This document shows, piece by piece, positions 11,529 through 24,052 of a DNA stretch of 64,000 nt. A model generated the notes under the pieces. That model ran no database searches. It saw nothing but the letters and a program-made list of their open reading frames with translations, and was not told the DNA's origin. The first letter of the stretch is position 1; each line of letters begins with the position of its first letter. The stretch covers positions 66,837 to 130,836 of the forward strand of contig JBBIPC010000005.1 of NCBI GenBank assembly GCA_037443035.1, read 5' to 3'. Position numbers and translations under genes: made by a program. This DNA comes from Chthonomonadales bacterium. GTDB taxonomy: Bacteria > Armatimonadota > Chthonomonadetes > Chthonomonadales > CAJBBX01.

Positions 11529-12383
11529 GTGAGGATCGGCGTCGCCAGTGGCAAAGGCGGAACGGGGAAGACGCTCCTTGCCACGAGCCTGGCCTACATC
11601 TTGGCCGAAGCCAGGCCGGTTCAGTACGTCGACTGCGACGTCGAAGAGCCGAACGGTCGGATTTTCCTGAAGCCGCGTATCACACGGTCTGAAGACGTCC
11701 GTGTGGACGTGCCGGTCATCGATGGAGAGGCATGTGCACTCTGCGGCGAGTGCGCCGAGTTCTGCCGGTTCGGAGCACTCGCCGCAATGGGCGAGAAGGT
11801 TCTGCTTTTCCCCGAGCTCTGCCACTCCTGCGGCGGGTGTGCGCTCGTCTGCCCGAACGATGCCATCCGAATGGGCCGTCGTAGTATCGGCAAGGTCGAG
11901 GTGGGACGATCGGGGAAGGTCGGTTTCGTCGAAGGGCGGCTGAACGTCGGCGAACCCATGGCGGCTCCGGTCATCTACGCGACGCTGGAGGCCGCGGACG
12001 AAGAGTCGCTCGTCATCGTGGATGCGCCGCCGGGTACATCCTGCGCGCTCATTGCCGCCATTCGAGCGTGTGACTACGTCTTGCTGGTCACGGAGCCCAC
12101 GCCATTCGGGCTACATGACCTGAGGCTGACGCTAGAGGTCGTCGCGGCTCTGGGGCTTCGCGCAGGGGTCGTGGTCAACCGAGAAGGGCTGGGCGACTTG
12201 GAGGTGGAGCCACTCTGCGCAGAGGCAGGCGTACCCATCCTGGCCAGGATCCCGTTCGACCGGCGGATCGCGGAAGTCTATGCAACGGGAGATAGCGTCA
12301 CCGATGCTCTGCCGGATGTTCGGTCCATCCTTAGCGACCTGGCCTGTGCGGTATTGCAGGAGAGCTCATGCCGGAACTCGTGA
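11529..12383 (+). CDS. MinD/ParA-superfamily P-loop ATPase with inserted 2x[4Fe-4S] ferredoxin domain (COG1149-like)
   Basis: Deviant Walker A GKGGTGKT. Two cluster motifs, CALCGECAEFC and CHSCGGCALVCP. GTG start. Confidence 0.85.
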   Translation: MRIGVASGKGGTGKTLLATSLAYILAEARPVQYVDCDVEEPNGRIFLKPRITRSEDVRVDVPVIDGEACALCGECAEFCRFGALAAMGEKVLLFPELCHSCGGCALVCPNDAIRMGRRSIGKVEVGRSGKVGFVEGRLNVGEPMAAPVIYATLEAADEESLVIVDAPPGTSCALIAAIRACDYVLLVTEPTPFGLHDLRLTLEVVAALGLRAGVVVNREGLGDLEVEPLCAEAGVPILARIPFDRRIAEVYATGDSVTDALPDVRSILSDLACAVLQESSCRNS

Positions 12384-13282
12384 TACTGAGCGGCAAGGGC
12401 GGCACGGGGAAGACCAGCGTCACTGCAGCATTCGCAGCGCTGGCCGTGCCTGTTACGTTGGCCGACTGCGATGTGGATGCCGCCGACTTGCACCTCGTGG
12501 CCGCGCCCGAGACAACCGAAACGCACGAGTTCCGATCGGGCTGGCACGCCGTCCTGGACCAGACTCTTTGTCGGCAATGTGGACGCTGCATCGCGTCGTG
12601 CCGGTTCGATGCAATCCACCGCGATAGGACGCGCTACCGCCAACTCCACATTGACCCGTTCGCCTGCGAAGGGTGCGGCGTGTGCGAGTTCGTCTGCCGC
12701 ATGGGCGCCATCTCCATGGAGGAGCCGATTCGGGGATTCTGGTACCGATCCGTGACCCGGTTCGGACCCATGTTCCATGCCCAACTACACCCGGGCGCAG
12801 AAAACTCCGGGAAGCTGGTGACCCTCCTGCGGCGGAAGGCCCGGCAAGCCGCCGAGCAGCCGAACGGTCTTCTCCTGACCGACGGGCCGCCGGGAGTGGG
12901 CTGCGCCGCCATCGCCACGCTTACGGGAGCGGATCACGTGCTCTTCGTTACGGAACCGACCGCAACCGGGCTACACGACCTGAAACGTGCGGAGAGATTG
13001 GCCGCTGGATTTCGTATCCCCGGCAGCGTCTTGATCAATAAAGCCGATCTCAGCCCGGAGATGAGCCGCTCCATTGCAGAGTATGCCGGCCAAGCGGGTC
13101 TTCATCTCCTGGGAGAGGTGCCGTTCGATGCCGCGTTCGCCCGGGCGCAGGCCGCCGGCCAGACGATATTGGAATACGGTCGGAGTCCTGGAGCCGACGC
13201 GCTACGAGTAGCATGGTCGCGGCTTCAGCGGCTGCTATCCGCCAAGACGCGCACACCGTTTCGAATTGTCAAGAATATGTAG
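12368..13282 (+). CDS. Second MinD/ParA-superfamily P-loop ATPase with inserted ferredoxin domain (COG1149-like)
   Basis: GKGGTGKT, CRQCGRCIASC and CEGCGVCEFVC motifs. It overlaps the previous gene by 16 nt. Confidence 0.85.
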   Translation: MPELVILSGKGGTGKTSVTAAFAALAVPVTLADCDVDAADLHLVAAPETTETHEFRSGWHAVLDQTLCRQCGRCIASCRFDAIHRDRTRYRQLHIDPFACEGCGVCEFVCRMGAISMEEPIRGFWYRSVTRFGPMFHAQLHPGAENSGKLVTLLRRKARQAAEQPNGLLLTDGPPGVGCAAIATLTGADHVLFVTEPTATGLHDLKRAERLAAGFRIPGSVLINKADLSPEMSRSIAEYAGQAGLHLLGEVPFDAAFARAQAAGQTILEYGRSPGADALRVAWSRLQRLLSAKTRTPFRIVKNM

Positions 13283-13298
13283 TTCGAGGGAGCCATCC

Positions 13299-13637
13299 AT
13301 GATCATCGCGATACCGCTCGTGGGAGACCGGTTGTCGGCCCACTTTGGTCATTGCGAGAAGTTCGCCCTCGTCCATGCCGATGGCGGCAAAGAGGGCGTT
13401 CTCAGGCTGGAGACTGTGACCCCACCGCCGCACGCACCGGGTGTCTTCCCGCAGTGGCTGGCCCAGTTGGGTGTACAGGTCGTGATCGTAGGCGGCATGG
13501 GCTCTCGGGCCCAGTCCCTCTTCGCCCAGCAAGGCATCACCGTCGTCACCGGTGCCCCCGTGGACACTCCGGAAGTTCTTGCGCAAGCCTACCTGAGCGG
13601 GTGTCTCCAGAGCGGAGAGAACGTCTGCGATCACTGA
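13299..13637 (+). CDS. NifB/NifX-family (COG1433-like) protein, second copy
   Basis: MIIAIPLVGDRLSAHFGHCEKFALV...PQWLAQLGVQVVIVGGMGSRAQSLFAQQGITVV. ATG 13299 is preceded by GAGGGA. Confidence 0.8.
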   Translation: MIIAIPLVGDRLSAHFGHCEKFALVHADGGKEGVLRLETVTPPPHAPGVFPQWLAQLGVQVVIVGGMGSRAQSLFAQQGITVVTGAPVDTPEVLAQAYLSGCLQSGENVCDH

Positions 13638-13828: not shown

Positions 13829-13907
13829 AGTGGACGATTGGTGGCGCCGGAGCAGTTGCTCCGCTTCGACGTCTGCCAGCTACATAGTGACGGAGGTAAC
13901 GAGCACG

Positions 13908-14255
13908 GTGCAAGGACTATGGAAGCCTGCCATCAGCGTCGTCGTCCTGGTTCTCGGTGCGACAGCACTCGCCATGCCTGCGTACAAGGCGGTGTTGCAC
14001 TCCACCTACAAAGTGAAACCGGGCAGCGTCATCGCCAAGGCCGACTGCGCACTCTGCCACGCGACGAAGTCCAACTTCAAGAAGCTGAACGTGTTTGGCG
14101 CCGACCTTGACAAGGCGCTCAAAGTGGCGAAGTCGAAGGCAATGACCGCGGAGATCCTCAAGAAAGTCGAGACACTTGACTCCGACAAGGACGGGGTGAA
14201 AAACGTGGATGAAATACAGAAGGACACCCTGCCGGGAGATCCGAAGAGCAAGTAG
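13908..14255 (+). CDS. Small monoheme c-type cytochrome with signal/anchor helix and a DxDxDG-type loop
   Basis: It has a single CALCH motif, hydrophobic N-terminus AISVVVLVLGATALA and LDSDKDGVKNVDE near the C-terminus. GTG 13908 has GGAGG 11 nt upstream; the track start is 13830. Confidence 0.7.
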   Translation: MQGLWKPAISVVVLVLGATALAMPAYKAVLHSTYKVKPGSVIAKADCALCHATKSNFKKLNVFGADLDKALKVAKSKAMTAEILKKVETLDSDKDGVKNVDEIQKDTLPGDPKSK

Positions 14256-14367
14256 CGAGCGGTAGCGGATGCCGTGCGAACCCTGACTACCTCGGCTTCC
14301 GCCGCCTACAGGCTGGAAGACCCAACACCCATGCGCTCGTTGCACGAGCGCAAGAAAGGACAAGAGC

Positions 14368-15570
14368 ATGCGGAGAACGCATAAGGCAATCGTCGCAGTC
14401 GCCATTCTGTGTGGCTTCGTGGCCGCCGCGTCCAGCGCCTTGGCAGTACCCGCTTTCGGGCGCAAGACCGGCCTAGACTGCACTTCGTGCCACTTCGGTG
14501 GTTCGAATCGACTCACGAGAATGGGCCTGGATTTCCTCGTTCGCGGACATCGTATGAAGGATGATCAGGGCATTGCCAAGGGTGACAAGAGCCTGAACGT
14601 TCTGGACTACATGTCGTTCTCGTCCAAGGTTCGCTACACCGCGAACAACTCGTCACCGTACACGGCTTTCGACGTGGAGTCCTTCTCTATCTACACGGGC
14701 GGACCTCTTTCCGGGGGTTTCAGCTACTTCGTGGAGTACTACCTCCATGAGCGGGGCAAGGCGGCGTCCTCGACTGGTGGTCAGGTGGACACAGCTACGA
14801 GGTCGAAGCTTGCGGACGCGTATCTCCAATGGAACAGCGCCCCTCAGGGAGATGCGTATTACTACGTTCGAGCGGGCCAGATCTACCCGTACGCCGTCTA
14901 CGTCAATGGTTCTGGCGGTCGCCTGAGTATCAGTCGCCCGACAGTGATCGATGGTGATCTCGGGGGTGGCAACTTGTATACACCACGCGACCGTGCCTAT
15001 GGCCTGTCGGCCGGCTACGCGAACGGTAATGGGTACCGTATGGAAGCAGGGATCGTCAACAGCGGCGGAACCAACAAGCGCGCCAACCTCGCGGAGCAGA
15101 ATACTTTCAAGGATCTTTTCCTCACCGTGGAGAAGGACCTGACGTCTGAGCTAACGTTCGGACTGTACGGCTACAACGGACGCATCAACATCCCGGCGGC
15201 GGGAAGCATCCCCCAGTGGGAGGATCGCTTCACTCGGTATGGCGTCTTCAGCCGTTACGAGACCGAGAGTCTCGCCTTGAGCGCCGCGTACTTCGGAGGC
15301 CAGAACCAGGTCTACGGCGGCGGACACAGGAATCCTGACGGGTACTATCTCGAAGCGGGATACAACGTCCAGCCAACCTTGACGGGATTCGCACGCTACG
15401 ACCACGTCTACAACGACCTGGGCGCCTCATCGCGGCGAACGGATGTCACGTTCGGCGTGTCCCAGAGGCTGACGGATGTGGGGCGACTGGTGCTGCAGTT
15501 CAGCACTACGACAGTACCAGGATCACCATACAAGCGACAGTTGCAGGCGGAGCTGAACTGGCTCTTCTAG
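14368..15570 (+). CDS. Fused monoheme cytochrome c - outer-membrane beta-barrel (Cyc2-like porin-cytochrome)
   Basis: Signal peptide MRRTHKAIVAVAILCGFVAAASSALA, then VPAFGRKTGLDCTSCH (CxxCH at 14479-14493). About 355 aa of alternating-hydrophobic, Gly/Tyr/Asn-rich sequence follow, ending ...AELNWLF with the C-terminal aromatic typical of OM barrels. That it is a gene is near certain; the Cyc2 assignment rests on architecture only. Confidence 0.65.
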   Translation: MRRTHKAIVAVAILCGFVAAASSALAVPAFGRKTGLDCTSCHFGGSNRLTRMGLDFLVRGHRMKDDQGIAKGDKSLNVLDYMSFSSKVRYTANNSSPYTAFDVESFSIYTGGPLSGGFSYFVEYYLHERGKAASSTGGQVDTATRSKLADAYLQWNSAPQGDAYYYVRAGQIYPYAVYVNGSGGRLSISRPTVIDGDLGGGNLYTPRDRAYGLSAGYANGNGYRMEAGIVNSGGTNKRANLAEQNTFKDLFLTVEKDLTSELTFGLYGYNGRINIPAAGSIPQWEDRFTRYGVFSRYETESLALSAAYFGGQNQVYGGGHRNPDGYYLEAGYNVQPTLTGFARYDHVYNDLGASSRRTDVTFGVSQRLTDVGRLVLQFSTTTVPGSPYKRQLQAELNWLF

Positions 15571-15588
15571 GCACCGTACCGTTGTCTC

Positions 15589-15628
15589 GCTGCGGTGCTC
15601 CTCCCACGCCTAGGTGGAGCACCGCAGC
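15589..15628 (+). terminator. Perfect 13-bp stem-loop between the porin-cytochrome and heptaheme genes
   Basis: gctgcggtgctcc (15589-15601) / ggagcaccgcagc (15616-15628) with a 14-nt loop and no U-tract. It is an attenuator, partial terminator or mRNA-stabilising hairpin. Confidence 0.5.
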
Positions 15629-15811
15629 CTCATACGCAACAAGGGAAAGCACGATACAACGTCGCGAGACGATAGCTGCCAACCTCTGTGGCTACGACCT
15701 CCGTTGCCAGGCTGGGGACGTCGGATGCTTGGTGACCCGGGCGCGCCACCGAATGGCCCGTAGGCCCTGGGTACTGGCCACATCCATCGGCCAGCGGACC
15801 ACGATCTGAGG

Positions 15812-17305
15812 ATGAAGCTCCCACGTTCGTTCTACAACGTCACGACCTTCGTGGGAGCCCTCTTTGCGTTCCTGTTCCTCCTCGTTACGTTGTTCCTCTT
15901 CGCGGTGGAGCTGACCGCTCCGCAGTCCCATCCGTACATGGGGCTCGTCGCGTTCATCGTCCTTCCGACTCTTTTCGTCCTGAGTCTGCTTGTCGCGCTC
16001 TTCGGCATCTTCCGGACGTGGCGCCGGCTCCGAAAGCCGACAGCCACTCCCATCCCGCCGTTCCATTTCGATCTCAGTGTCCCGGCCCAACGTAACGCCG
16101 CTCTGCTCGTCATGGGAGGATCGGGGTTCTTCCTGCTGTTCGCCTCGTTCACGAGCTACCAAGCTTACGAGTACACCGATTCCGTCGAGTTCTGCGGAAG
16201 AGCCTGTCACGCGGTGATGAAGCCCGAATACACCGCCTACAAGGCTTCTCCCCACGCGAGGGTGGCCTGCGTGGCATGTCACATCGGCCCTGGAGCGACC
16301 TGGTTCGTCAAGTCCAAACTGAGTGGTACGTACCAGGTCTACTCCACACTCTTCCACAAGTACCACAAGCCCATCGAGACACCCATCGCCAACCTGCGTC
16401 CTGCTCGAGAGACCTGCGAGCAGTGCCACTGGCCCCAGCATTTCTACTCGGCCAAACTTCGCACGCAGGCCTACTTCCTGTCCGACGAGAAGAACACGCG
16501 CTCCAGCACGACGCTGCTGATGAAGATCGGCGGGGGTGATGTCAATCACGGAGCGGCGGCTGGCATCCATTTCCACATGTACCTGAACGCCACCATCTCC
16601 TACGTAGCCCTGGACAAGAAGCGTCTGGTGATCCCCTACGTGGAGGTCCGGTACCCTGACGGTACTTTCAGATCGTATCGAAGCACAGAGAATCCCGTAC
16701 CTGAAGACAAGCTGCGTAAGTCACCTCGCTACGTCGTAGACTGCATCGAGTGTCACAATCGACCGACCCACCGGTTCCGCCATCCGGCGCAGACCGTGAA
16801 CCTGGCCATGTCTTTGAACAAGATCAAGCCGGACCTGCCAGAGATCAAGAAGGTAGCCGTGGAAGCCCTGGAACAGCCATACAAGACGGAGCCGGAGGCC
16901 CTCCGAGGCATTCGCAAGGCTGTACTGGACGCTTTCCGAGCGAACCATCCGGACGTGGCGGCCTCGCGTGGTGCCGACATCGAAGCGGCCATCGAGGAGC
17001 TGCAACGTATCTACCGCACGAATTACTTTCCGGAGATGAAGGTAAGCTGGAAGGAGTTCCCGGATCATATCGGCCATCTGTACTCTCCGGGCTGCTTCCG
17101 ATGCCATGACGACAAGCATGTCAGCCCGGACGGCAAGGTCTTGTCACGCGCGTGCAATCAGTGCCACACGATACTGGCACAGACGGACGGCCAGGGCAAG
17201 ATGTCCGAATCGCTCGAGGGGCTGGCCTTCAAGCACCCAGGCGATGTGGGAGATGCCTGGATGCAGATGAACTGCACAGACTGCCACGCGCAACCAGCAC
17301 AATAG
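15812..17305 (+). CDS. Membrane-anchored heptaheme c-type cytochrome (NapC/NirT- / ImcH-like putative quinone-interacting cytochrome)
   Basis: Two N-terminal TM helices (FVGALFAFLFLLVTLFLFAV; GLVAFIVLPTLFVLSLLVALFGIF). Seven CxxCH motifs: CGRACH, CVACH, CEQCH, CIECH, CFRCH, CNQCH, CTDCH. The first pair, CGRACHAVM...CVACH, resembles NapC/NirT/NrfH spacing. Confidence 0.8.
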   Translation: MKLPRSFYNVTTFVGALFAFLFLLVTLFLFAVELTAPQSHPYMGLVAFIVLPTLFVLSLLVALFGIFRTWRRLRKPTATPIPPFHFDLSVPAQRNAALLVMGGSGFFLLFASFTSYQAYEYTDSVEFCGRACHAVMKPEYTAYKASPHARVACVACHIGPGATWFVKSKLSGTYQVYSTLFHKYHKPIETPIANLRPARETCEQCHWPQHFYSAKLRTQAYFLSDEKNTRSSTTLLMKIGGGDVNHGAAAGIHFHMYLNATISYVALDKKRLVIPYVEVRYPDGTFRSYRSTENPVPEDKLRKSPRYVVDCIECHNRPTHRFRHPAQTVNLAMSLNKIKPDLPEIKKVAVEALEQPYKTEPEALRGIRKAVLDAFRANHPDVAASRGADIEAAIEELQRIYRTNYFPEMKVSWKEFPDHIGHLYSPGCFRCHDDKHVSPDGKVLSRACNQCHTILAQTDGQGKMSESLEGLAFKHPGDVGDAWMQMNCTDCHAQPAQ

Positions 17306-17440
17306 CCACAGAGCGGGAGATCCAGCTCCCGCCACAAACAGGTGGACTGCGCAGTCGCGAAGCCGGACGAGGTCCCGGCCGCGACCTTGTAAGGCAATGT
17401 CCGCACGTGGATGCGGATTCACCGCGGGAGGTGAACAAGT

Positions 17441-17950
17441 ATGCCTGCACAGTCTACGAGGCCGCTGGACGACGAGAGGTCTGACGTTTCCGCAGCGGCC
17501 ACGCAAGCCGGTCGCCGAAGCTTTCTCGAGTGGCTGCTGGCCACCTTGCTAGTCGTGACCGGCGCTACCTTTGTTCGTCCTGTGCTGTCCTATCTCAGTC
17601 CCCGAAAGAGCGGCAAGGGTGCCCACGTTCTGCTCGGTACTGACGGCCGCTCCATTCCGTATGCACGGCTAGCCACGGAGCCGACACTCGTCGGCATGGG
17701 CGTGGACGGGGAGCCTACGATTGTCGTGAGGTACGCCGGAGAAACAAGGGCATTCTCGGCGGTCTGCACACATCTGGGCTGCCTCGTCAAGTGGGAGGCG
17801 GCCAAGGCCGAGTTCATCTGCCCGTGCCACAACGGCCACTTCGACGCGAACGGTGTCAACGTTGCCGGGCCACCACCCAAACCGCTGAAACGCTTCAAGG
17901 TCTACGCAACGGACAGGGGCGAAATCGGTCTCGAGGAGGTATCGGCATGA
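17441..17950 (+). CDS. Rieske [2Fe-2S] subunit of a cytochrome bc-type complex
   Basis: Tat-like RRSFLEWLL followed by a TM helix. Cluster boxes CTHLGC and CPCHNGHF. Its stop overlaps the cytochrome b start (ATGA at 17947). Confidence 0.9.
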   Translation: MPAQSTRPLDDERSDVSAAATQAGRRSFLEWLLATLLVVTGATFVRPVLSYLSPRKSGKGAHVLLGTDGRSIPYARLATEPTLVGMGVDGEPTIVVRYAGETRAFSAVCTHLGCLVKWEAAKAEFICPCHNGHFDANGVNVAGPPPKPLKRFKVYATDRGEIGLEEVSA

Positions 17951-19011
17951 AGCGCCTCGTTACCTCGGTGTGGCGATGGATAGATACACGCCTGAAGCTC
18001 AGCGATATCTTGCGGGCTACCCTAACCGAGTACATGGTGCCGGCGAACCTCAACTTCTGGCACACACTGGGCTTCGTTCTGGTGACCTGCTTCGTCATCC
18101 AGGTGGTCACCGGCATGCTCCTCCTGATGTACTACGTTCCGGACACCAGCCGAGCTTTCGAATCCGTCCAATACCTCAGCAATGAGGTGCCTTACGGGTG
18201 GCTCGTGCGGAACATCCACGCGATGACATCCCACCTGTTCGTGCTGGCGCTATTCCTCCATATCGCCTCCACCGTCTGGATGCGGGCCTACCGCAATCCG
18301 CGGGAGCTCCAGTGGCTTTCGGGGATGATCCTCCTGGGTCTAGTGCTAGCTGCCGGTCTGTCTGGCTACCTACTGCCGTGGAGCCAGCTCTCGTACTGGG
18401 CGACAACCGTGGCGACCAACGCCGCAGGGAGCATTCCTGTCGTTGGTGATGATCTCGTGCTCTGGATTCGCGGAACGCCGAAGGTGACGCAGTTCACTCT
18501 CGGACGATTCTTCGCGGCGCACGTCTCCATCATTCCGTTCAGCATTCTGGTCCTGATCGGCATCCACCTGCTGTTCCTTCGACTGACAGGTATCTCTGTC
18601 CCAGGGGGTGAGGAGAGGGGTCCGGTCCGCAGAGTGCCATTCTTCCCTCACATGGTGGTGAAGGAGATCGGTTCGGTCTTCGGATTCCTGATCCTTCTGA
18701 ATGTCCTGATCTTCTACTTCCCGCAGATCAACTTCCCCGCGGACGCCCTCATTCCCGCTAATCCGCTCGAAACTCCCGCTCATATCAAACCGCACTGGTA
18801 CTTCCTGGCTAACTACCAGTTCCTGAAGCTCGTGCCCAGCGAGTTTCTCGGTGTTATCCTCCAAGTCGTTGGAGGGATTATCCTTTTCTTCCTGCCATTC
18901 CTCGACACAGGTAAGCGACGGTCCCCGCTCTACAACCGGCTGTTCTACGCGGTGGTCGGTCTCAGCATCCTCGGTTACATCGGCCTGATGGTCTGGGGCT
19001 ACTACTCATGA
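17947..19011 (+). CDS. Cytochrome b (fused b6 + subunit-IV-like, 354 aa)
   Basis: FWHTLG, RNIHAMTSHLFVLALFLH (H-x13-H), GYLLPWSQLSYWATTVATN, AHVSIIPFSILVLIGIH (H-x14-H) and the Qo motif region IKPHWYFL. ATG 17947 is coupled to the Rieske stop; the track start 17791 is a 5-prime shadow. Confidence 0.9.
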   Translation: MKRLVTSVWRWIDTRLKLSDILRATLTEYMVPANLNFWHTLGFVLVTCFVIQVVTGMLLLMYYVPDTSRAFESVQYLSNEVPYGWLVRNIHAMTSHLFVLALFLHIASTVWMRAYRNPRELQWLSGMILLGLVLAAGLSGYLLPWSQLSYWATTVATNAAGSIPVVGDDLVLWIRGTPKVTQFTLGRFFAAHVSIIPFSILVLIGIHLLFLRLTGISVPGGEERGPVRRVPFFPHMVVKEIGSVFGFLILLNVLIFYFPQINFPADALIPANPLETPAHIKPHWYFLANYQFLKLVPSEFLGVILQVVGGIILFFLPFLDTGKRRSPLYNRLFYAVVGLSILGYIGLMVWGYYS

Positions 19012-19829
19012 GGAGGTACGGGTTGATGATGCGCATTCTCGTTACAGCCCTGGCACTATCGGTGGTCGGGGGGGCGGCCCGGGGGCAGAACTCGTGTCTC
19101 GCCTGCCACCGACAGCAAGAGGGTGATCGTGGCGGTCCAGCCCATGACTGGCCGACAAGCGTGCACTTCGTGAACGGGATTGGTTGCCAGGATTGCCACG
19201 GCGGCGACGCCCGTTCCGACGACCCTCAGATCGCCATGAACCCCAAGAACGGCTTCGTCGGTCGGCCAGCTCCAAGGGACGTTCCCAACTTCTGTGGCAA
19301 GTGTCACGAAGCTGTTCGCGACAACTACCTGCAGAGCGCTCATGCAGCCATGCTCCAGGCTGACCCGGCAGCCGCGCCCAACTGCGTCACGTGCCACACC
19401 GCCCATAAACAGCAGAAGGTTACGCTGGACCTCATCAACGAGCGAACGTGCGGCCGGTGTCACGATTACGCACGGGCAGCGAGGCTCAAGGAAGCCATGC
19501 GCGGTATCGAGAACGATGTGCAAGCGGTGACTGCTCGCGAACGTCACGTGTTCCTCCACGGCATCGCCACAGACGACGAACAGAAGGCTATCTTTGCCGT
19601 CCGTAATCAGGCACACAGGCTTACCCACGTCCTGGAGATCCAGAGAATCCTCGGTGCATTGGACAAGGTACGGCCCGACCTGGATCGCGTAGAGGCGCGG
19701 ATTTCGGTCAAGGAGAAGGTCCTGGAGGATAGACGGCGAGAAGGGAACGCTCTCCTCGTGCTCTTCTTCATCGGCATGATCGTCGCCTACGCTACGCACA
19801 AGAGGCTCATGCATACCGCCAGCGGTTGA
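19008..19829 (+). CDS. Pentaheme c-type cytochrome with C-terminal membrane anchor (cytochrome c subunit of the bc-type complex)
   Basis: Signal peptide, then five CxxCH motifs (CLACH, CQDCH, CGKCH, CVTCH, CGRCH) and C-terminal helix LLVLFFIGMIVAYATH. ATGA overlap with the cytochrome b stop. Confidence 0.85.
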   Translation: MRRYGLMMRILVTALALSVVGGAARGQNSCLACHRQQEGDRGGPAHDWPTSVHFVNGIGCQDCHGGDARSDDPQIAMNPKNGFVGRPAPRDVPNFCGKCHEAVRDNYLQSAHAAMLQADPAAAPNCVTCHTAHKQQKVTLDLINERTCGRCHDYARAARLKEAMRGIENDVQAVTARERHVFLHGIATDDEQKAIFAVRNQAHRLTHVLEIQRILGALDKVRPDLDRVEARISVKEKVLEDRRREGNALLVLFFIGMIVAYATHKRLMHTASG

Positions 19830-19870: not shown

Positions 19871-19900
19871 TTGACAGGCACTCCTTAGCCGTGCTATATA
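19871..19900 (+). promoter_or_regulatory. Near-consensus sigma70-type promoter
   Basis: TTGACA (19871-19876) - 18 nt - TATATA (19895-19900), 30 nt upstream of GTG 19930. Confidence 0.45.
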
Positions 19901-19929
19901 TTTGTCACGTTCGTGGCAAGGGGAGTGCG

Positions 19930-20631
19930 GTGCATTCGATACGCGTGACATTGGCGGCAGCCCCGCTGGTGGCGCTTCTGCTATGGCCGTCGGCCGCCGC
20001 GGCCGATGTGCGTCACTTCCCCTACACCTACTCCTGGCACCAGCCGTACCGCAACGAGAAGGAGATCGCTTATCACCTGCGGTATCTAGATCGAGACAAC
20101 ACCTTCACCCATCGCTTCGAGTTCGAGTACGGCCTCACAGATCACCTGTCCGTAGCACCCTACGTCGTCTTCACTGGGAATACCGGCGGCGGCTGGACAT
20201 ACGACGCAACGTTGCTAGAGACACGCTGGAACTTCGGAAGTCGCAAGGACGACGTCTGGTTGCCCGCAGTCTACATGGAGTGGAAGAAGGCCAGATCCGA
20301 GCCCTGGGAAGTGGAGGGCAAAATCATCATCACGCGCTATGGCACAGGCGAATCGGATCTCTCGCTCAACTACATTGTCGAGCAACTCCTGGAGACGGGA
20401 GCCAGTGCGCATCATGCGCTGTCTCTGGCGTACAGCAGAACCATCGGTGGCGGCATGCGGGCGGGATTCGAGTGGATTCAGGGTCTCACGTCTCGCAGGA
20501 TCAATGCGGGGCCTGTGTTCTCAAGCTACGTGGGACCAGTGTGGCTCACGGGAGGGCTGGCTCTGCCGCTGAACGGCGTTTCTGGCAATCGCCCCGAGTT
20601 CCGACTCATCGCCTCCCACCACTGGTTCTGA
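19930..20631 (+). CDS. Small outer-membrane beta-barrel protein, function unknown
   Basis: Signal VHSIRVTLAAAPLVALLLWPSAAAA, alternating amphipathic strands and C-terminal ...RLIASHHWF. GTG 19930 has AAGGGGAG 5 nt upstream. Confidence 0.6.
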   Translation: MHSIRVTLAAAPLVALLLWPSAAAADVRHFPYTYSWHQPYRNEKEIAYHLRYLDRDNTFTHRFEFEYGLTDHLSVAPYVVFTGNTGGGWTYDATLLETRWNFGSRKDDVWLPAVYMEWKKARSEPWEVEGKIIITRYGTGESDLSLNYIVEQLLETGASAHHALSLAYSRTIGGGMRAGFEWIQGLTSRRINAGPVFSSYVGPVWLTGGLALPLNGVSGNRPEFRLIASHHWF

Positions 20632-20661
20632 GCTGTCGGCAGGCACACGGTCAACGATGCC

Positions 20662-21300
20662 ATGACAGCAGTGGCGTCCGCTACAGGAGACGTACGGGCC
20701 GCTCGGCGGCTGGCCCTGTTCACCGTCGCCTGGAACCTGACCGAGGCGTTCGTGGCCTTGTTGAGCGGAATACTGGCTGGCAGCATCGCATTGGTCGGAT
20801 TTGGCGCCGACTCCATAGTGGAGAGTCTATCCGGTGCGGTGATGCTCTGGCGTTTCGGGGCGACCGACCACGACGGCCGTCGAGAGAAGCTGGCCTTACG
20901 GTTGGTGGGAGCCACCTTGCTCATCCTCGCTGTGTACGTCGCAGGCGACGCAGCTCAGAGCCTCGCTCGCCGTGAGCCACCCGAGAAGAGCATCCCTGGC
21001 ATCATTCTCGCGATGCTATCGCTGGCCGTAATGCCTCTGCTCGCACGTGCCAAGCGAAGAGTGGCCGGCAGGCTACAGAGCGCCTCGTTACATGCCGACT
21101 CGCGGCAGACCGACATCTGCGCCGTGCTATCCGCCATCTTGCTTGTTGGACTGGCCCTAAATGCCATAGCTGGGTGGTGGTGGGCCGATCCTATGGCTGC
21201 GATCGCTATGACGCCGCTCATCGCGCGTGAGGGAGTGAATGCCGTGCGCGGAGAAGCGTGCGGCTGTGCCGTGCAACATCCTACAGCGAAGTCAGACTGA
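20662..21300 (+). CDS. Cation diffusion facilitator-type cation efflux transporter (short form, membrane domain only)
   Basis: Six predicted helices. CDF-like motifs GSIALVGFGADSIVESLSG and LHADSRQTDICAV. Lies 30 nt after the barrel gene on the same strand. Confidence 0.7.
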   Translation: MTAVASATGDVRAARRLALFTVAWNLTEAFVALLSGILAGSIALVGFGADSIVESLSGAVMLWRFGATDHDGRREKLALRLVGATLLILAVYVAGDAAQSLARREPPEKSIPGIILAMLSLAVMPLLARAKRRVAGRLQSASLHADSRQTDICAVLSAILLVGLALNAIAGWWWADPMAAIAMTPLIAREGVNAVRGEACGCAVQHPTAKSD

Positions 21301-22674
21301 CTCTCCTTGGTTCTCCATGGCGTCGCGGGCCATTCTCACTAGGTCCCGGGCTTCCGGCTCAGTCGGTGCTTCGGCAATGACGCGGATGATAGGCTCCGTG
21401 TTGGACGCCCGGGCCTGCAGCCACCGGTCGGGCCAGATCGCTTTGACGCCGTCGGTGAAGTCGAGCGTCGCGCCAACACAGGCAGCCTGAAGGCGACGCA
21501 GTGCAACGGGTACATCACGCGGACGCGCTGGCATCCGTTCCTTCAACATGGCGTACGCTGGAATCGCAGAACGCAGGTCACGGATCGTCGCGCGCTCCGT
21601 GGCCATGGCCTCCAGGATGTACCCCATGGCTACGAAACTGTCGCGGCACGGATTGATGTGGGGTGCTATGACGCCGCCGTTACCTTCACCACCGATACGC
21701 GCTCCTACCTCCAGCATCTTCTCTACGACATTGATCTCTCCAACCTTCGTGCGGTACAGCGTACAGCCTGTTTCTGAACAGACGTCGTCTATCATGCGGC
21801 TCGTGGAAACGTTGACCACAACCGGTCCAGGACTCCGCCGTGTCGCGTGCCGCACCGCCAGTGCCACGGTCACCTCCTCACCGAGCGGGATGCCGTTCTG
21901 GTCGGCGATGGCCAAGCGATCGGCGTCGGCATCCTGTACAAAGCCAACATCGGCTCCCGATTCCCGAACGGCCATGCCGAGATCCGTCATGTTCTCCGGT
22001 ACGGGCTCTGGACTGTGGGGGAACGGCCTATCGGGGTCCGTGTGGATGGCCACAACCTTGCAGCCCAGACCTTCCAGGAAGGTTGGCGTTGCCCTGGACG
22101 CCGCTCCGTTGCAGCAGTCCACCGCAACGCGAATGCCGGCGCGACGAATGCTCTCCACATCCAGAGCCTGCCGGACGGCTTCCAGGTGACGCGGAATGGC
22201 CGAGCTATCGTGACGCACTTGCGGAACGGCCGCACCGCCGACGCGGGGATAGATACCCTGATGGTAGAGATCCGTGAGCTCGGCGGCTTCGTGAGGGCGG
22301 AGAAGGATGCCGTCCGGACCGAAGAACTTCAGAGCATTCCACTCGATAGGATTGTGACTGGCCGTGAGACAAATGCCGCCGAACGCCCCCATGCGCCGTA
22401 CATGTAGCTGCAACGCCGGCACGGGTAGGATGCCGACGTCCACCGGCGTACATCCCACGCTCTGAAGCCCGGCTATGACCGCGTACTCCACCATCTCCCG
22501 GGATGGTCGGGTGTCCGTTCCCACAAGGATCGGCCCAGCGCCCGCATAGGCACCGAAAGCTGCGGCAAATGACGTCACGAGCTGTGGCGTCAGCGCATCG
22601 CCCACGATGCCCCGCACACCAGAGATGCTGATCTTGAGTGCGAGCTGCTTGCGACGCAACAGGTTCGCAGCCAT
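21292..22674 (-). CDS. Phosphohexomutase (phosphoglucosamine / phosphomannomutase family)
   Basis: Canonical loops: phosphoserine TASHNP, metal DADADR, sugar GEGNGG, phosphate RASNTEP. Confidence 0.85.
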   Translation of the reverse strand: MAANLLRRKQLALKISISGVRGIVGDALTPQLVTSFAAAFGAYAGAGPILVGTDTRPSREMVEYAVIAGLQSVGCTPVDVGILPVPALQLHVRRMGAFGGICLTASHNPIEWNALKFFGPDGILLRPHEAAELTDLYHQGIYPRVGGAAVPQVRHDSSAIPRHLEAVRQALDVESIRRAGIRVAVDCCNGAASRATPTFLEGLGCKVVAIHTDPDRPFPHSPEPVPENMTDLGMAVRESGADVGFVQDADADRLAIADQNGIPLGEEVTVALAVRHATRRSPGPVVVNVSTSRMIDDVCSETGCTLYRTKVGEINVVEKMLEVGARIGGEGNGGVIAPHINPCRDSFVAMGYILEAMATERATIRDLRSAIPAYAMLKERMPARPRDVPVALRRLQAACVGATLDFTDGVKAIWPDRWLQARASNTEPIIRVIAEAPTEPEARDLVRMARDAMENQGESV

Positions 22675-22675
22675 C

Positions 22676-24052
22676 TCAGCGACCTCCGTGCCCCCAGGCA
22701 GCCCGCCGGGCGATCGTCACACACTCGTCGAAGAGCCGGTCGGCATCATCCGCGCTGGATGCTTCCAATATGATCCGCACCAGAGGCTCGGTGTTGGACG
22801 CGCGAACGTGCAACCATGCCTCGGGCCAATCGAATCGAACACCATCTGTAAGGTCGGGCCGGTCCTCGCGGAATCGTTCGCAGAAGCTGTCGAGGATTCG
22901 ACGGACGCTAGTGGGCGGGCAGGGCAGCTCGGCCTTGCGCATATGGTACGCGGGCAGGTCCGCGGCCAGATCCGCAAGCGACCGTCCGCTCACCGATATG
23001 GCCTCCAGCACCGTGGCCAGAGAGAGCAGCGCATCGAATGTAGTCGTGTGCGGTAACGCAGCGACGCCTCCGTTTCCTTCTCCAGCCAGAGCGGCCGACT
23101 CCGTCAGAGCACGGTCCATGACATGGCCTTCGCCAACGCTCGTGCGAATGCATTCGCGGCCGTATTGTCGAGCAACGGCCTCCACCATGCGTGAGGTGGA
23201 TAAGTTCGTGACGACCGGCCCCTCGCGCCGGGCCAGCACGTGCCGCGCCACAATCGGCAGGACACACTCTTCGGAAAGAGCCTCGCCGGCGTGTGTAACG
23301 AGACCCAACCGGTCTCCATCCACGTTGATGGCGGCCCCAAGGTCGGCCTGCACGCTCCGAAGCAGGGCCGCGAGTTGCCGCATGTTCGCTGGTGAGGGAG
23401 CGGGCAAGTGGGCAAAGGAACCGTCCGCATCGTCGTTCAGTGGTATCACTTGGCAGCCAAGGGCGTCGAGGAATCGCTTGCCAAGTTCCGTCGCCGCCCC
23501 GTTGCAGAAGTCCACGGCGATACGAAGTCCTTTGCTGCGGATGGTAGCCGCGTCCACTGCGTCCAGTATGGATGCAACATACGCGTTCGAGGCCTCGGCG
23601 GTGACATGGCGCTTGCCCAGGGCCTGCCATGGCGCCAGCGTAAACGCTGAGGCATGGTAGATGTCCAGCAGCTCCTCGGTGTTGGCAGCGTTGAGAAGCG
23701 CCCCATCCGGTCCTACGAACTTCAGGGCGTTCCAGCGTACGTCGTTATGGCTGCCTGTAATGGAGATGCCACCTGCGGCGCTCCGTGAGCGCACTGCGTG
23801 GCTTACGGCCGGAGTCGTGCACACACCCAGGTCCAGGACATCCGTACCGGTGCTGATGAGCGCCGAAAGAACCGCGGCATGGAGCATGCTCGAGCTGAGA
23901 CGCGTGTCTCGCCCGATCACGACCTCACCGCCGCCGCAATACGTGCCGAAAGCGCTGGCGAAGTCCACCACCAGCTCGGGGGTCATCGCCTCGCCCACGA
24001 CGCCTCGAACGCCCGAGACGCCGATCTTGAGTTGACGAAGTGCGAGATCCAT
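22676..24052 (-). CDS. Phosphohexomutase paralog with divergent active-site loops
   Basis: Same four-domain layout, but TGSHND replaces TASHNP and NVDGDR replaces DxDxDR. GEGNGG and RASNTEP are conserved. Its stop lies 1 nt from the start of the downstream paralog. Confidence 0.8.
   Translation of the reverse strand: MDLALRQLKIGVSGVRGVVGEAMTPELVVDFASAFGTYCGGGEVVIGRDTRLSSSMLHAAVLSALISTGTDVLDLGVCTTPAVSHAVRSRSAAGGISITGSHNDVRWNALKFVGPDGALLNAANTEELLDIYHASAFTLAPWQALGKRHVTAEASNAYVASILDAVDAATIRSKGLRIAVDFCNGAATELGKRFLDALGCQVIPLNDDADGSFAHLPAPSPANMRQLAALLRSVQADLGAAINVDGDRLGLVTHAGEALSEECVLPIVARHVLARREGPVVTNLSTSRMVEAVARQYGRECIRTSVGEGHVMDRALTESAALAGEGNGGVAALPHTTTFDALLSLATVLEAISVSGRSLADLAADLPAYHMRKAELPCPPTSVRRILDSFCERFREDRPDLTDGVRFDWPEAWLHVRASNTEPLVRIILEASSADDADRLFDECVTIARRAAWGHGGR

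Follow-up and report, generated by a model that had tools for sequence, protein, structure and literature searches.

We found a natural variant of the quinol oxidation (Qo) site of cytochrome b, with histidine in the position of the glutamate of the PEWY motif, in a Rieske/cytochrome b operon of an uncultured Armatimonadota bacterium from sediment. The operon lies in a stretch of 64,000 nucleotides (the window) of contig JBBIPC010000005.1 (positions 66,837 to 130,836; assembly GCA_037443035.1, order Chthonomonadales), and the cytochrome b that it encodes, P0001, reads PHWY at this site. This motif falls outside the described Qo motifs, and it is apparently an undescribed natural variant of a known enzyme type. 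With a probability of about 0.6, we read the operon as encoding a working accessory Rieske/cytochrome b complex that would act as a menaquinol:cytochrome c oxidoreductase, with His283 in the role of the glutamate.

The preliminary description of this DNA had reported the string IKPHWYFL, encoded by CCG CAC TGG TAC at 18790-18801, and had placed its histidine at the glutamate of PEWY. The string was reproduced, and the placement withstood a check for a register shift, since the phmmer alignments of P0001 to the cytochromes b of Aquifex aeolicus, pig, and mouse put His283 under the glutamate without a gap. The flanks on both sides are identical (HIKP-H-WYFL versus HIKP-E-WYFL). The alignment of 96 homologues shows no variation at P282, W284, or Y285; at position 283, it has glutamate in 88 sequences and histidine in 8. 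The best 120 protein clusters divide in the same manner, with 112 PEWY clusters and 8 PHWY clusters, the latter 66 to 100% identical to the query.

The histidine codon is genuine. The PHWY sequences form 8 independent clusters at 90% identity. JGI, ENA, Logan, and NCBI are the sources of their members, about 17 sequences in all, and the 7 clusters other than the one of the window account for 16 of these. A Chthonomonadales metagenome-assembled genome (MAG), L006, whose cytochrome b is 79% identical, and the JGI contig L030 carry the same operon with the same CAC codon. The fear that the codon is an assembly error, raised in the preliminary description, is thereby removed. An assembly or sequencing error, or a decaying copy of the gene, has a next to negligible chance of explaining the motif, given the 8 clusters from four sources, the second genome, and the metagenome contig on one side, and the full-length open frame under strong purifying selection on the other. 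Moreover, an independent sediment run has yielded a 120-kb contig, from a strain that is 96.6% identical, that spans the operon, which is support at the level of the operon rather than of the codon.

Pairs of PHWY orthologues have a proportion of synonymous differences (pS) of 0.62 to 0.69, which is saturated, and a ratio of nonsynonymous to synonymous change (dN/dS) of about 0.05 to 0.07. Since CAC is found in three diverged orthologues with saturated synonymous sites and a low dN/dS, the histidine has been kept by selection. The Glu-bearing sister enzymes are 64 to 70% identical, and one of them, the PEWY gene of locus L070 (67% identity), has a GAA codon at this position, two nucleotide changes away from CAC.

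The variant is rare. None of the 141 diverse representatives at 50% identity that cover the motif has PHWY; they comprise 109 PEWY, 6 PDWY, 5 PAWY, 5 PEWF, 3 PVWY, 2 PPWY, 2 PLWY, 1 PQWY, and a few others, so that D, A, V, P, L, and Q are all accepted in nature as the motif's second residue. In DNA pattern scans, which detect only the context H-[IV]-K-P-H-W-Y-F-L, this pattern occurs in 4 contigs of the JGI metagenome collection (241 million records), and HIKPHWYF, one of six patterns scanned in a set of 185,579 species with a single genome per species, was found in only three relatives besides the genome of the window. The literature search turned up no paper in which PHWY is paired with cytochrome b. 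The Qo motifs listed by Kao and Hunte (2014; PMC4122944) are PEWY, PDWY, PVWY, PPWF, APWY, PPWY, and PAWY; PHWY is absent from them, as the preliminary description had said of the shorter list that it knew, which lacked APWY, PPWY, and PAWY.

In a maximum-likelihood tree of the fused clade (72 homologues, quick search), all 8 PHWY sequences fall in one clade of 11, together with 3 PEWY sequences (support of 100 in the Shimodaira-Hasegawa-like approximate likelihood ratio test, SH-aLRT). The strongly supported branches require at least two changes between glutamate and histidine inside that clade; hence, the two residues interchange within one enzyme type. There is also a second PHWY lineage, in two Nitrospinota MAGs (loci L007 and L008), where the complex is split and the motif lies in a subunit IV that has a pair of CBS domains fused to its N-terminus. 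The closest relatives of this subunit IV among 120 Nitrospinota genomes are unfused, 49 to 53% identical, and all PEWY. The Nitrospinota PHWY proteins are only 39 to 44% identical to the query and more distant from it than the 112 PEWY homologues are, which makes the change from glutamate to histidine in that lineage independent.

This pattern of change bears on what the histidine does. It might be nearly neutral at a tolerant position, and the proton might leave by way of water or of residues elsewhere in the protein, a route that has been suggested for the PVWY, PAWY, and PPWF enzymes. The many natural replacements of the glutamate, in our tally and in the survey (PMC4122944), and the two or more changes within one small clade speak for this. 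We consider it unlikely, because the histidine and its codon are retained across orthologues in spite of saturated synonymous sites, because the substitution takes two nucleotide changes (GAA to CAC) and has nevertheless come about in two distant lineages, and because a residue found in 0 of 141 diverse representatives has not been freely sampled. That glutamate and histidine alternate in one clade suggests instead that both do a similar job, and the frequency of natural replacement (our tally and PMC4122944) indicates that a carboxylate is not essential there. It is in this sense that we favor a histidine acting in the place of the glutamate.

In the reading that we favor, haem bL is ligated by H91 and H192 and haem bH by H105 and H207, and menaquinol would be held in the Qo pocket between the cluster histidine of the Rieske protein and His283. 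As a neutral imidazole, His283 could make a hydrogen bond to the quinol, accept the second proton, and relay it toward the outer side. Glu272 in yeast has been proposed to act in the same quinol-bonding and proton-accepting role. The two electrons would then be split, one going through the Rieske centre to the five-haem cytochrome c of the operon and the other to haem bL, and the five-haem cytochrome would pass electrons on to cytochromes encoded next to it, in the periplasm and the outer membrane. We infer what the histidine does, which way the electrons flow, and what the last partner is. That a histidine would alter the chemistry of proton exit, as the preliminary description held, is plausible.

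Two observations weigh against this reading. The literature search found no E272H, E295H, E271H, or E78H mutant of a bc complex and no biochemistry of a PHWY enzyme. In addition, PHWY goes together with a seven-haem membrane cytochrome gene upstream of the Rieske gene, although in three related loci only, so that the histidine could belong with a particular partner, or with one direction of flow, and not simply stand in for the glutamate.

Such a tie is the core of another explanation, in which the histidine is an adaptation that alters the function of the Qo site, either for reverse electron flow, for example from Fe(II) to menaquinone, or for a proton-coupled electron transfer tuned to pH or potential. 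The bc1 complex of Acidithiobacillus ferrooxidans runs in reverse. According to Kao and Hunte, this species has PPWY and Leptospirillum has PAWY, both being iron oxidisers with non-carboxylate Qo motifs (PMC4122944). The extra seven-haem cytochrome at PHWY loci, missing from the PEWY sister locus, and the independent origin of the histidine in two lineages also favor an adaptation of this kind. We nevertheless hold it to be quite unlikely. RuBisCO was found neither in the host genome (G000) nor in G022 (other carbon-fixation pathways were not searched for), which weakens a lithoautotrophic reading, and the host has an ordinary respiratory chain, so that a need for uphill flow is not evident; the alternation of the two residues within a tight clade fits near-equivalence; and there is no co-varying residue exclusive to PHWY. 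R69 and H96 had been considered as PHWY-specific partners and were rejected, since both occur in PEWY sequences too (R69 in 5). No change in the Rieske protein is coupled to the histidine either, since its second cluster-binding box is identical in the two groups in the orthologue alignment.

A bolder version, which we regard as quite unlikely too, is a distinct Qo chemistry that would have evolved at least twice, in the fused Armatimonadota type and in the CBS-linked Nitrospinota type, with an imidazole beside haem bL, cationic once protonated, gating or reversing turnover. If true, a gated or reversed mode would suit complexes that are wired to multihaem conduits and not to soluble cytochrome c.

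For two decades, it has been disputed whether the PEWY glutamate binds the quinol directly and accepts its proton or is a dispensable bystander. A natural family with histidine and with Glu-bearing sisters would be a ready-made test of this question. Histidine has another pKa and, on protonation, the opposite change in charge, and a comparison of how the two versions differ in rate, in by-pass reactions, and in their response to pH would bear directly on the mechanism of proton exit. Beyond that, PHWY adds modestly to the Qo variants already listed, and the complex is otherwise ordinary for its clade.

The Rieske, cytochrome b, and cytochrome c genes are all on the plus strand and translationally coupled, the ATG of the cytochrome b gene lying inside the stop region of the Rieske gene (overlap of 4 nucleotides). 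The Rieske protein is anchored in the membrane and has a twin-arginine motif, a single N-terminal helix, and both cluster-binding boxes (CxH and CxxH), in the form CTHLGC and CPCHNGHF. Cytochrome b has a b6-like and a subunit-IV-like half in one chain, with 7 transmembrane helices, helix H being missing. Its AlphaFold2 model, built on the 96 homologues, has a mean predicted local distance difference test score (pLDDT) of 89, a predicted template modelling score (pTM) of 0.87, and seven long membrane helices; the PHWY residues begin a short helix that follows the long E-F loop, and Foldseek gives TM-scores of 0.83 to 0.90 against the cytochrome b of bc1 complexes. The cytochrome c subunit begins with a signal-like helix, and a hydrophobic helix in its C-terminal part (residues 246-264) is its membrane anchor. 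It substitutes for cytochrome c1 or f, and it is kept beside cytochrome b in L006, L030, and L070 (49 to 62% identity).

By its histidine pairs, its Rieske boxes, and its anchored cytochrome c, the predicted complex belongs to the Rieske/cytochrome b (bc1/b6f) superfamily. The acidic residue that PEWY and PDWY have as the second letter of the Qo motif is replaced by His283, which is no bar to membership, since members without a carboxylate there are already accepted (PMC4122944). The scores of the NCBIfam b6, PetC, and subunit IV models are under their cut-offs, making the protein a relative, rather than an equivalog, of the named types.

Apart from the motif, the preliminary description had called the complex atypical on several counts. 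The H-x13-H pair of helix B (H91/H105) was reproduced. The H-x14-H pair of helix D (H192/H207), the fused form of 354 amino acids in a single open reading frame, and the pentaheme cytochrome c with its C-terminal anchor are likewise all present, but none of them is atypical: 119 of the 120 closest homologues have the helix D spacing (the 120th is a truncated entry), and so does the Aquifex bc1 complex; the PEWY sister in genome G194 shares both the fused seven-helix form and the five haems of the c subunit; and multihaem c partners are described for Geobacter (PMC2825233). The label b6-type did not hold, because the chain is fused and the column of the haem ci cysteine of b6, Cys35, is occupied by Thr40.

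The host genome is 3.76 Mb, 100% complete by marker genes, and has one cytochrome b gene only. It carries two VitK2_biosynth (MqnA/MqnD-type) genes of the futalosine pathway, which indicates menaquinone. High-potential Rieske proteins have a Ser and a Tyr in box II. The box II of the Rieske protein here (CPCH-N-G-H-F) lacks both, in PHWY and PEWY relatives alike, which would fit a menaquinol enzyme. The genome also encodes an alternative complex III (ACIII), with ActD (1.7e-65), an ActC of the NrfD type, and an ActB-like Fe-S protein, and directly downstream of it a caa3 oxidase, made up of COX1, COX3, and a COX2 to which a cytochrome c is fused. With ACIII and the caa3 oxidase encoded elsewhere, the Rieske/cytochrome b complex is an extra one and not the housekeeping link to oxygen.

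The distribution of the complex is patchy. An orthologue with PHWY is present in 2 of 68 Chthonomonadales genomes, and this class of orthologue in 3 of 401 Armatimonadota genomes; the other Chthonomonadales cytochromes b have PEWY or PDWY. A genome of the same genus (G016, 96% complete) has no cytochrome b; it has no COX1 match either and keeps an NrfD-family gene, so that respiratory genes differ sharply within the genus. The closest homologues are labelled Hydrothermae, Nitrospirae, Ignavibacteriales, and Geobacteraceae, which, together with the patchy distribution, suggests a laterally moving module.

Table 1. Features of the operon and its surroundings (window coordinates, unless a locus is named)
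Feature	Coordinates	Strand	Remarks
Small one-haem cytochrome c, first gene of the block	13830..14255	+	One CxxCH; weak match to a GEGP-type dihaem model
Secreted protein, 400 aa	14368..15570	+	One CxxCH near N-terminus; no Pfam match
Seven-haem NapC/NirT-type membrane cytochrome, 497 aa	15812..17305	+	PF03264, NrfH model; seven haem motifs; 2 or 3 N-terminal helices
Rieske 2Fe-2S subunit, 169 aa	17441..17950	+	PF00355 4.7e-12; NCBIfam PetC-like models
Cytochrome b, 354 aa, P0001	17947..19011	+	PF00033 1.6e-56 and PF00032 9.9e-21 in one chain
Haem-ligating pair of helix B, H91-x13-H105	18217..18261	+	Invariant columns in 96 homologues
Haem-ligating pair of helix D, H192-x14-H207	18520..18567	+	Invariant in 96 homologues
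Qo motif P282-H283-W284-Y285	18790..18801	+	CCG CAC TGG TAC; CAC at 18793-18795
Five-haem cytochrome c, 273 aa	19008..19829	+	5 CxxCH; Pfam c3/c7-type multihaem matches
Multihaem cytochrome::cytochrome b561 fusion	L006:2405-4723	+	
Nitrospinota CBS-pair::subunit IV fusion with PHWY	L007:8924-9736	-	
Nitrospinota CBS-pair::subunit IV fusion with PHWY	L008:6608-7387	+	
ACIII (ActB-like, ActC/NrfD, ActD, one-haem ActE), then SCO1 and caa3 oxidase	L075 (G000 contig C3:60000-77000), 3029-14666		Complete-looking

The three core genes close a co-directional cytochrome block (13830-19829) that starts with a small one-haem cytochrome c, a 400-aa protein, and the seven-haem cytochrome (Table 1). We compared its gene neighbourhood with those of L006, L030, L070, L007, and L008. 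The small cytochrome c has a 51% identical copy in L006 and is kept in L030 as well. The seven-haem cytochrome, directly upstream of the Rieske gene, has 59 to 60% identical copies in the PHWY loci L006 and L030; the PEWY locus L070 consists of the three core genes only. In place of the 400-aa gene, L006 and L030 have a 772-aa fusion of a c7/c3-type multihaem cytochrome to a cytochrome b561 (PF01292), an architecture that, in L006, we take to resemble that of Geobacter CbcL. As a whole, the block looks like an extracellular electron transfer system.

Directly upstream of the block (11529-13637), there are two MinD/ParA-type P-loop proteins with two 4Fe-4S motifs each, followed by a small protein of the NifX/FeMo-cofactor fold; no nitrogenase genes were found among the neighbouring genes scanned. 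After the five-haem gene (19891-21300), there is a secreted protein of 246 amino acids that matches no Pfam family, and with it a short protein of the cation-efflux (CDF) type; both are absent after the operon in L006 and L070. On the minus strand, 21292-24052 holds two tandem genes of the phosphoglucomutase/phosphomannomutase family (460 and 458 aa), one base apart.

The best solved relative of P0001 is the cytochrome b of the Aquifex aeolicus bc1 complex (6KLS/6KLV; chain 6kls_B, E value 4.5e-73, residues 4-350 aligned). Both are single fused chains with H-x14-H in helix D and the same Qo-loop context; the Aquifex protein differs in having PEWY and 410 amino acids, the alignment ending about 45 residues short of its C-terminus. 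The c subunit of Aquifex is a one-haem c1, compared to the five haems here. Since this bc1 complex has H-x14-H too, the spacing is not specific to b6f. The N-terminal half of the query matches the PetB of b6f at 181 bits, a score equal to that of the Aquifex cytochrome b, and b6f shares the spacing and the total of seven helices. However, b6f has two polypeptides, PetB and PetD, and cytochrome f instead of the five-haem cytochrome. In the alignment to spinach and cyanobacterial b6, Thr40 of the query falls in the column of Cys35, the site of covalent attachment of haem ci (cn), and with the fused chain this led us to reject an assignment to the b6 type. The proteobacterial and mitochondrial bc1 type differs as well, with eight helices and H-x13-H against the seven helices of the model and H-x14-H; mitochondrial cytochromes b need a one-residue gap at helix D to align to the query.

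Compared to the non-carboxylate Qo variants (PMC4122944), PHWY is alike in being a clade-specific replacement of the glutamate in an otherwise intact enzyme. It differs in its side chain: among the variants described there, none has a protonatable residue at the second position except for aspartate, and histidine is unlisted.

The Nitrospinota PHWY units (for example, OGV96718.1; L007 and L008) share the change from glutamate to histidine and its local context with the query. At both loci, subunit IV is followed by a multihaem cytochrome c of about 420 to 430 amino acids with a C-terminal anchor, 33% identical to the five-haem cytochrome of the query. They differ in the split complex, in the CBS pair on subunit IV, and in a b6-like partner that keeps the haem ci cysteine. 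In L007, the Rieske and b6 genes are convergent to the subunit IV unit; neither is nearby in L008. The respective genomes, G069 (L007) and G068 (L008), of 2.9 and 1.6 Mb, have 6 or 7 PF00033 matches each, the PHWY unit being one among many bc-type modules.

Similar complexes, in which Rieske and cytochrome b proteins also have multihaem cytochrome c partners, occur in Geobacter and other anaerobes. The Geobacteraceae have fused cytochromes b of 367 amino acids that are 46 to 50% identical to the query, all with PEWY among the matches listed, compared to PHWY in the query. The host differs from Geobacter in being an Armatimonadota bacterium and in having the ACIII-caa3 chain in addition. The Geobacter cluster GSU2930-2937 (Butler et al. 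2010; PMC2825233) has several multihaem cytochromes c, one of them with five haems, around a b-type cytochrome and a Rieske protein, and it has been proposed as a site of quinol oxidation for electron transfer out of the cell (PMC2825233).

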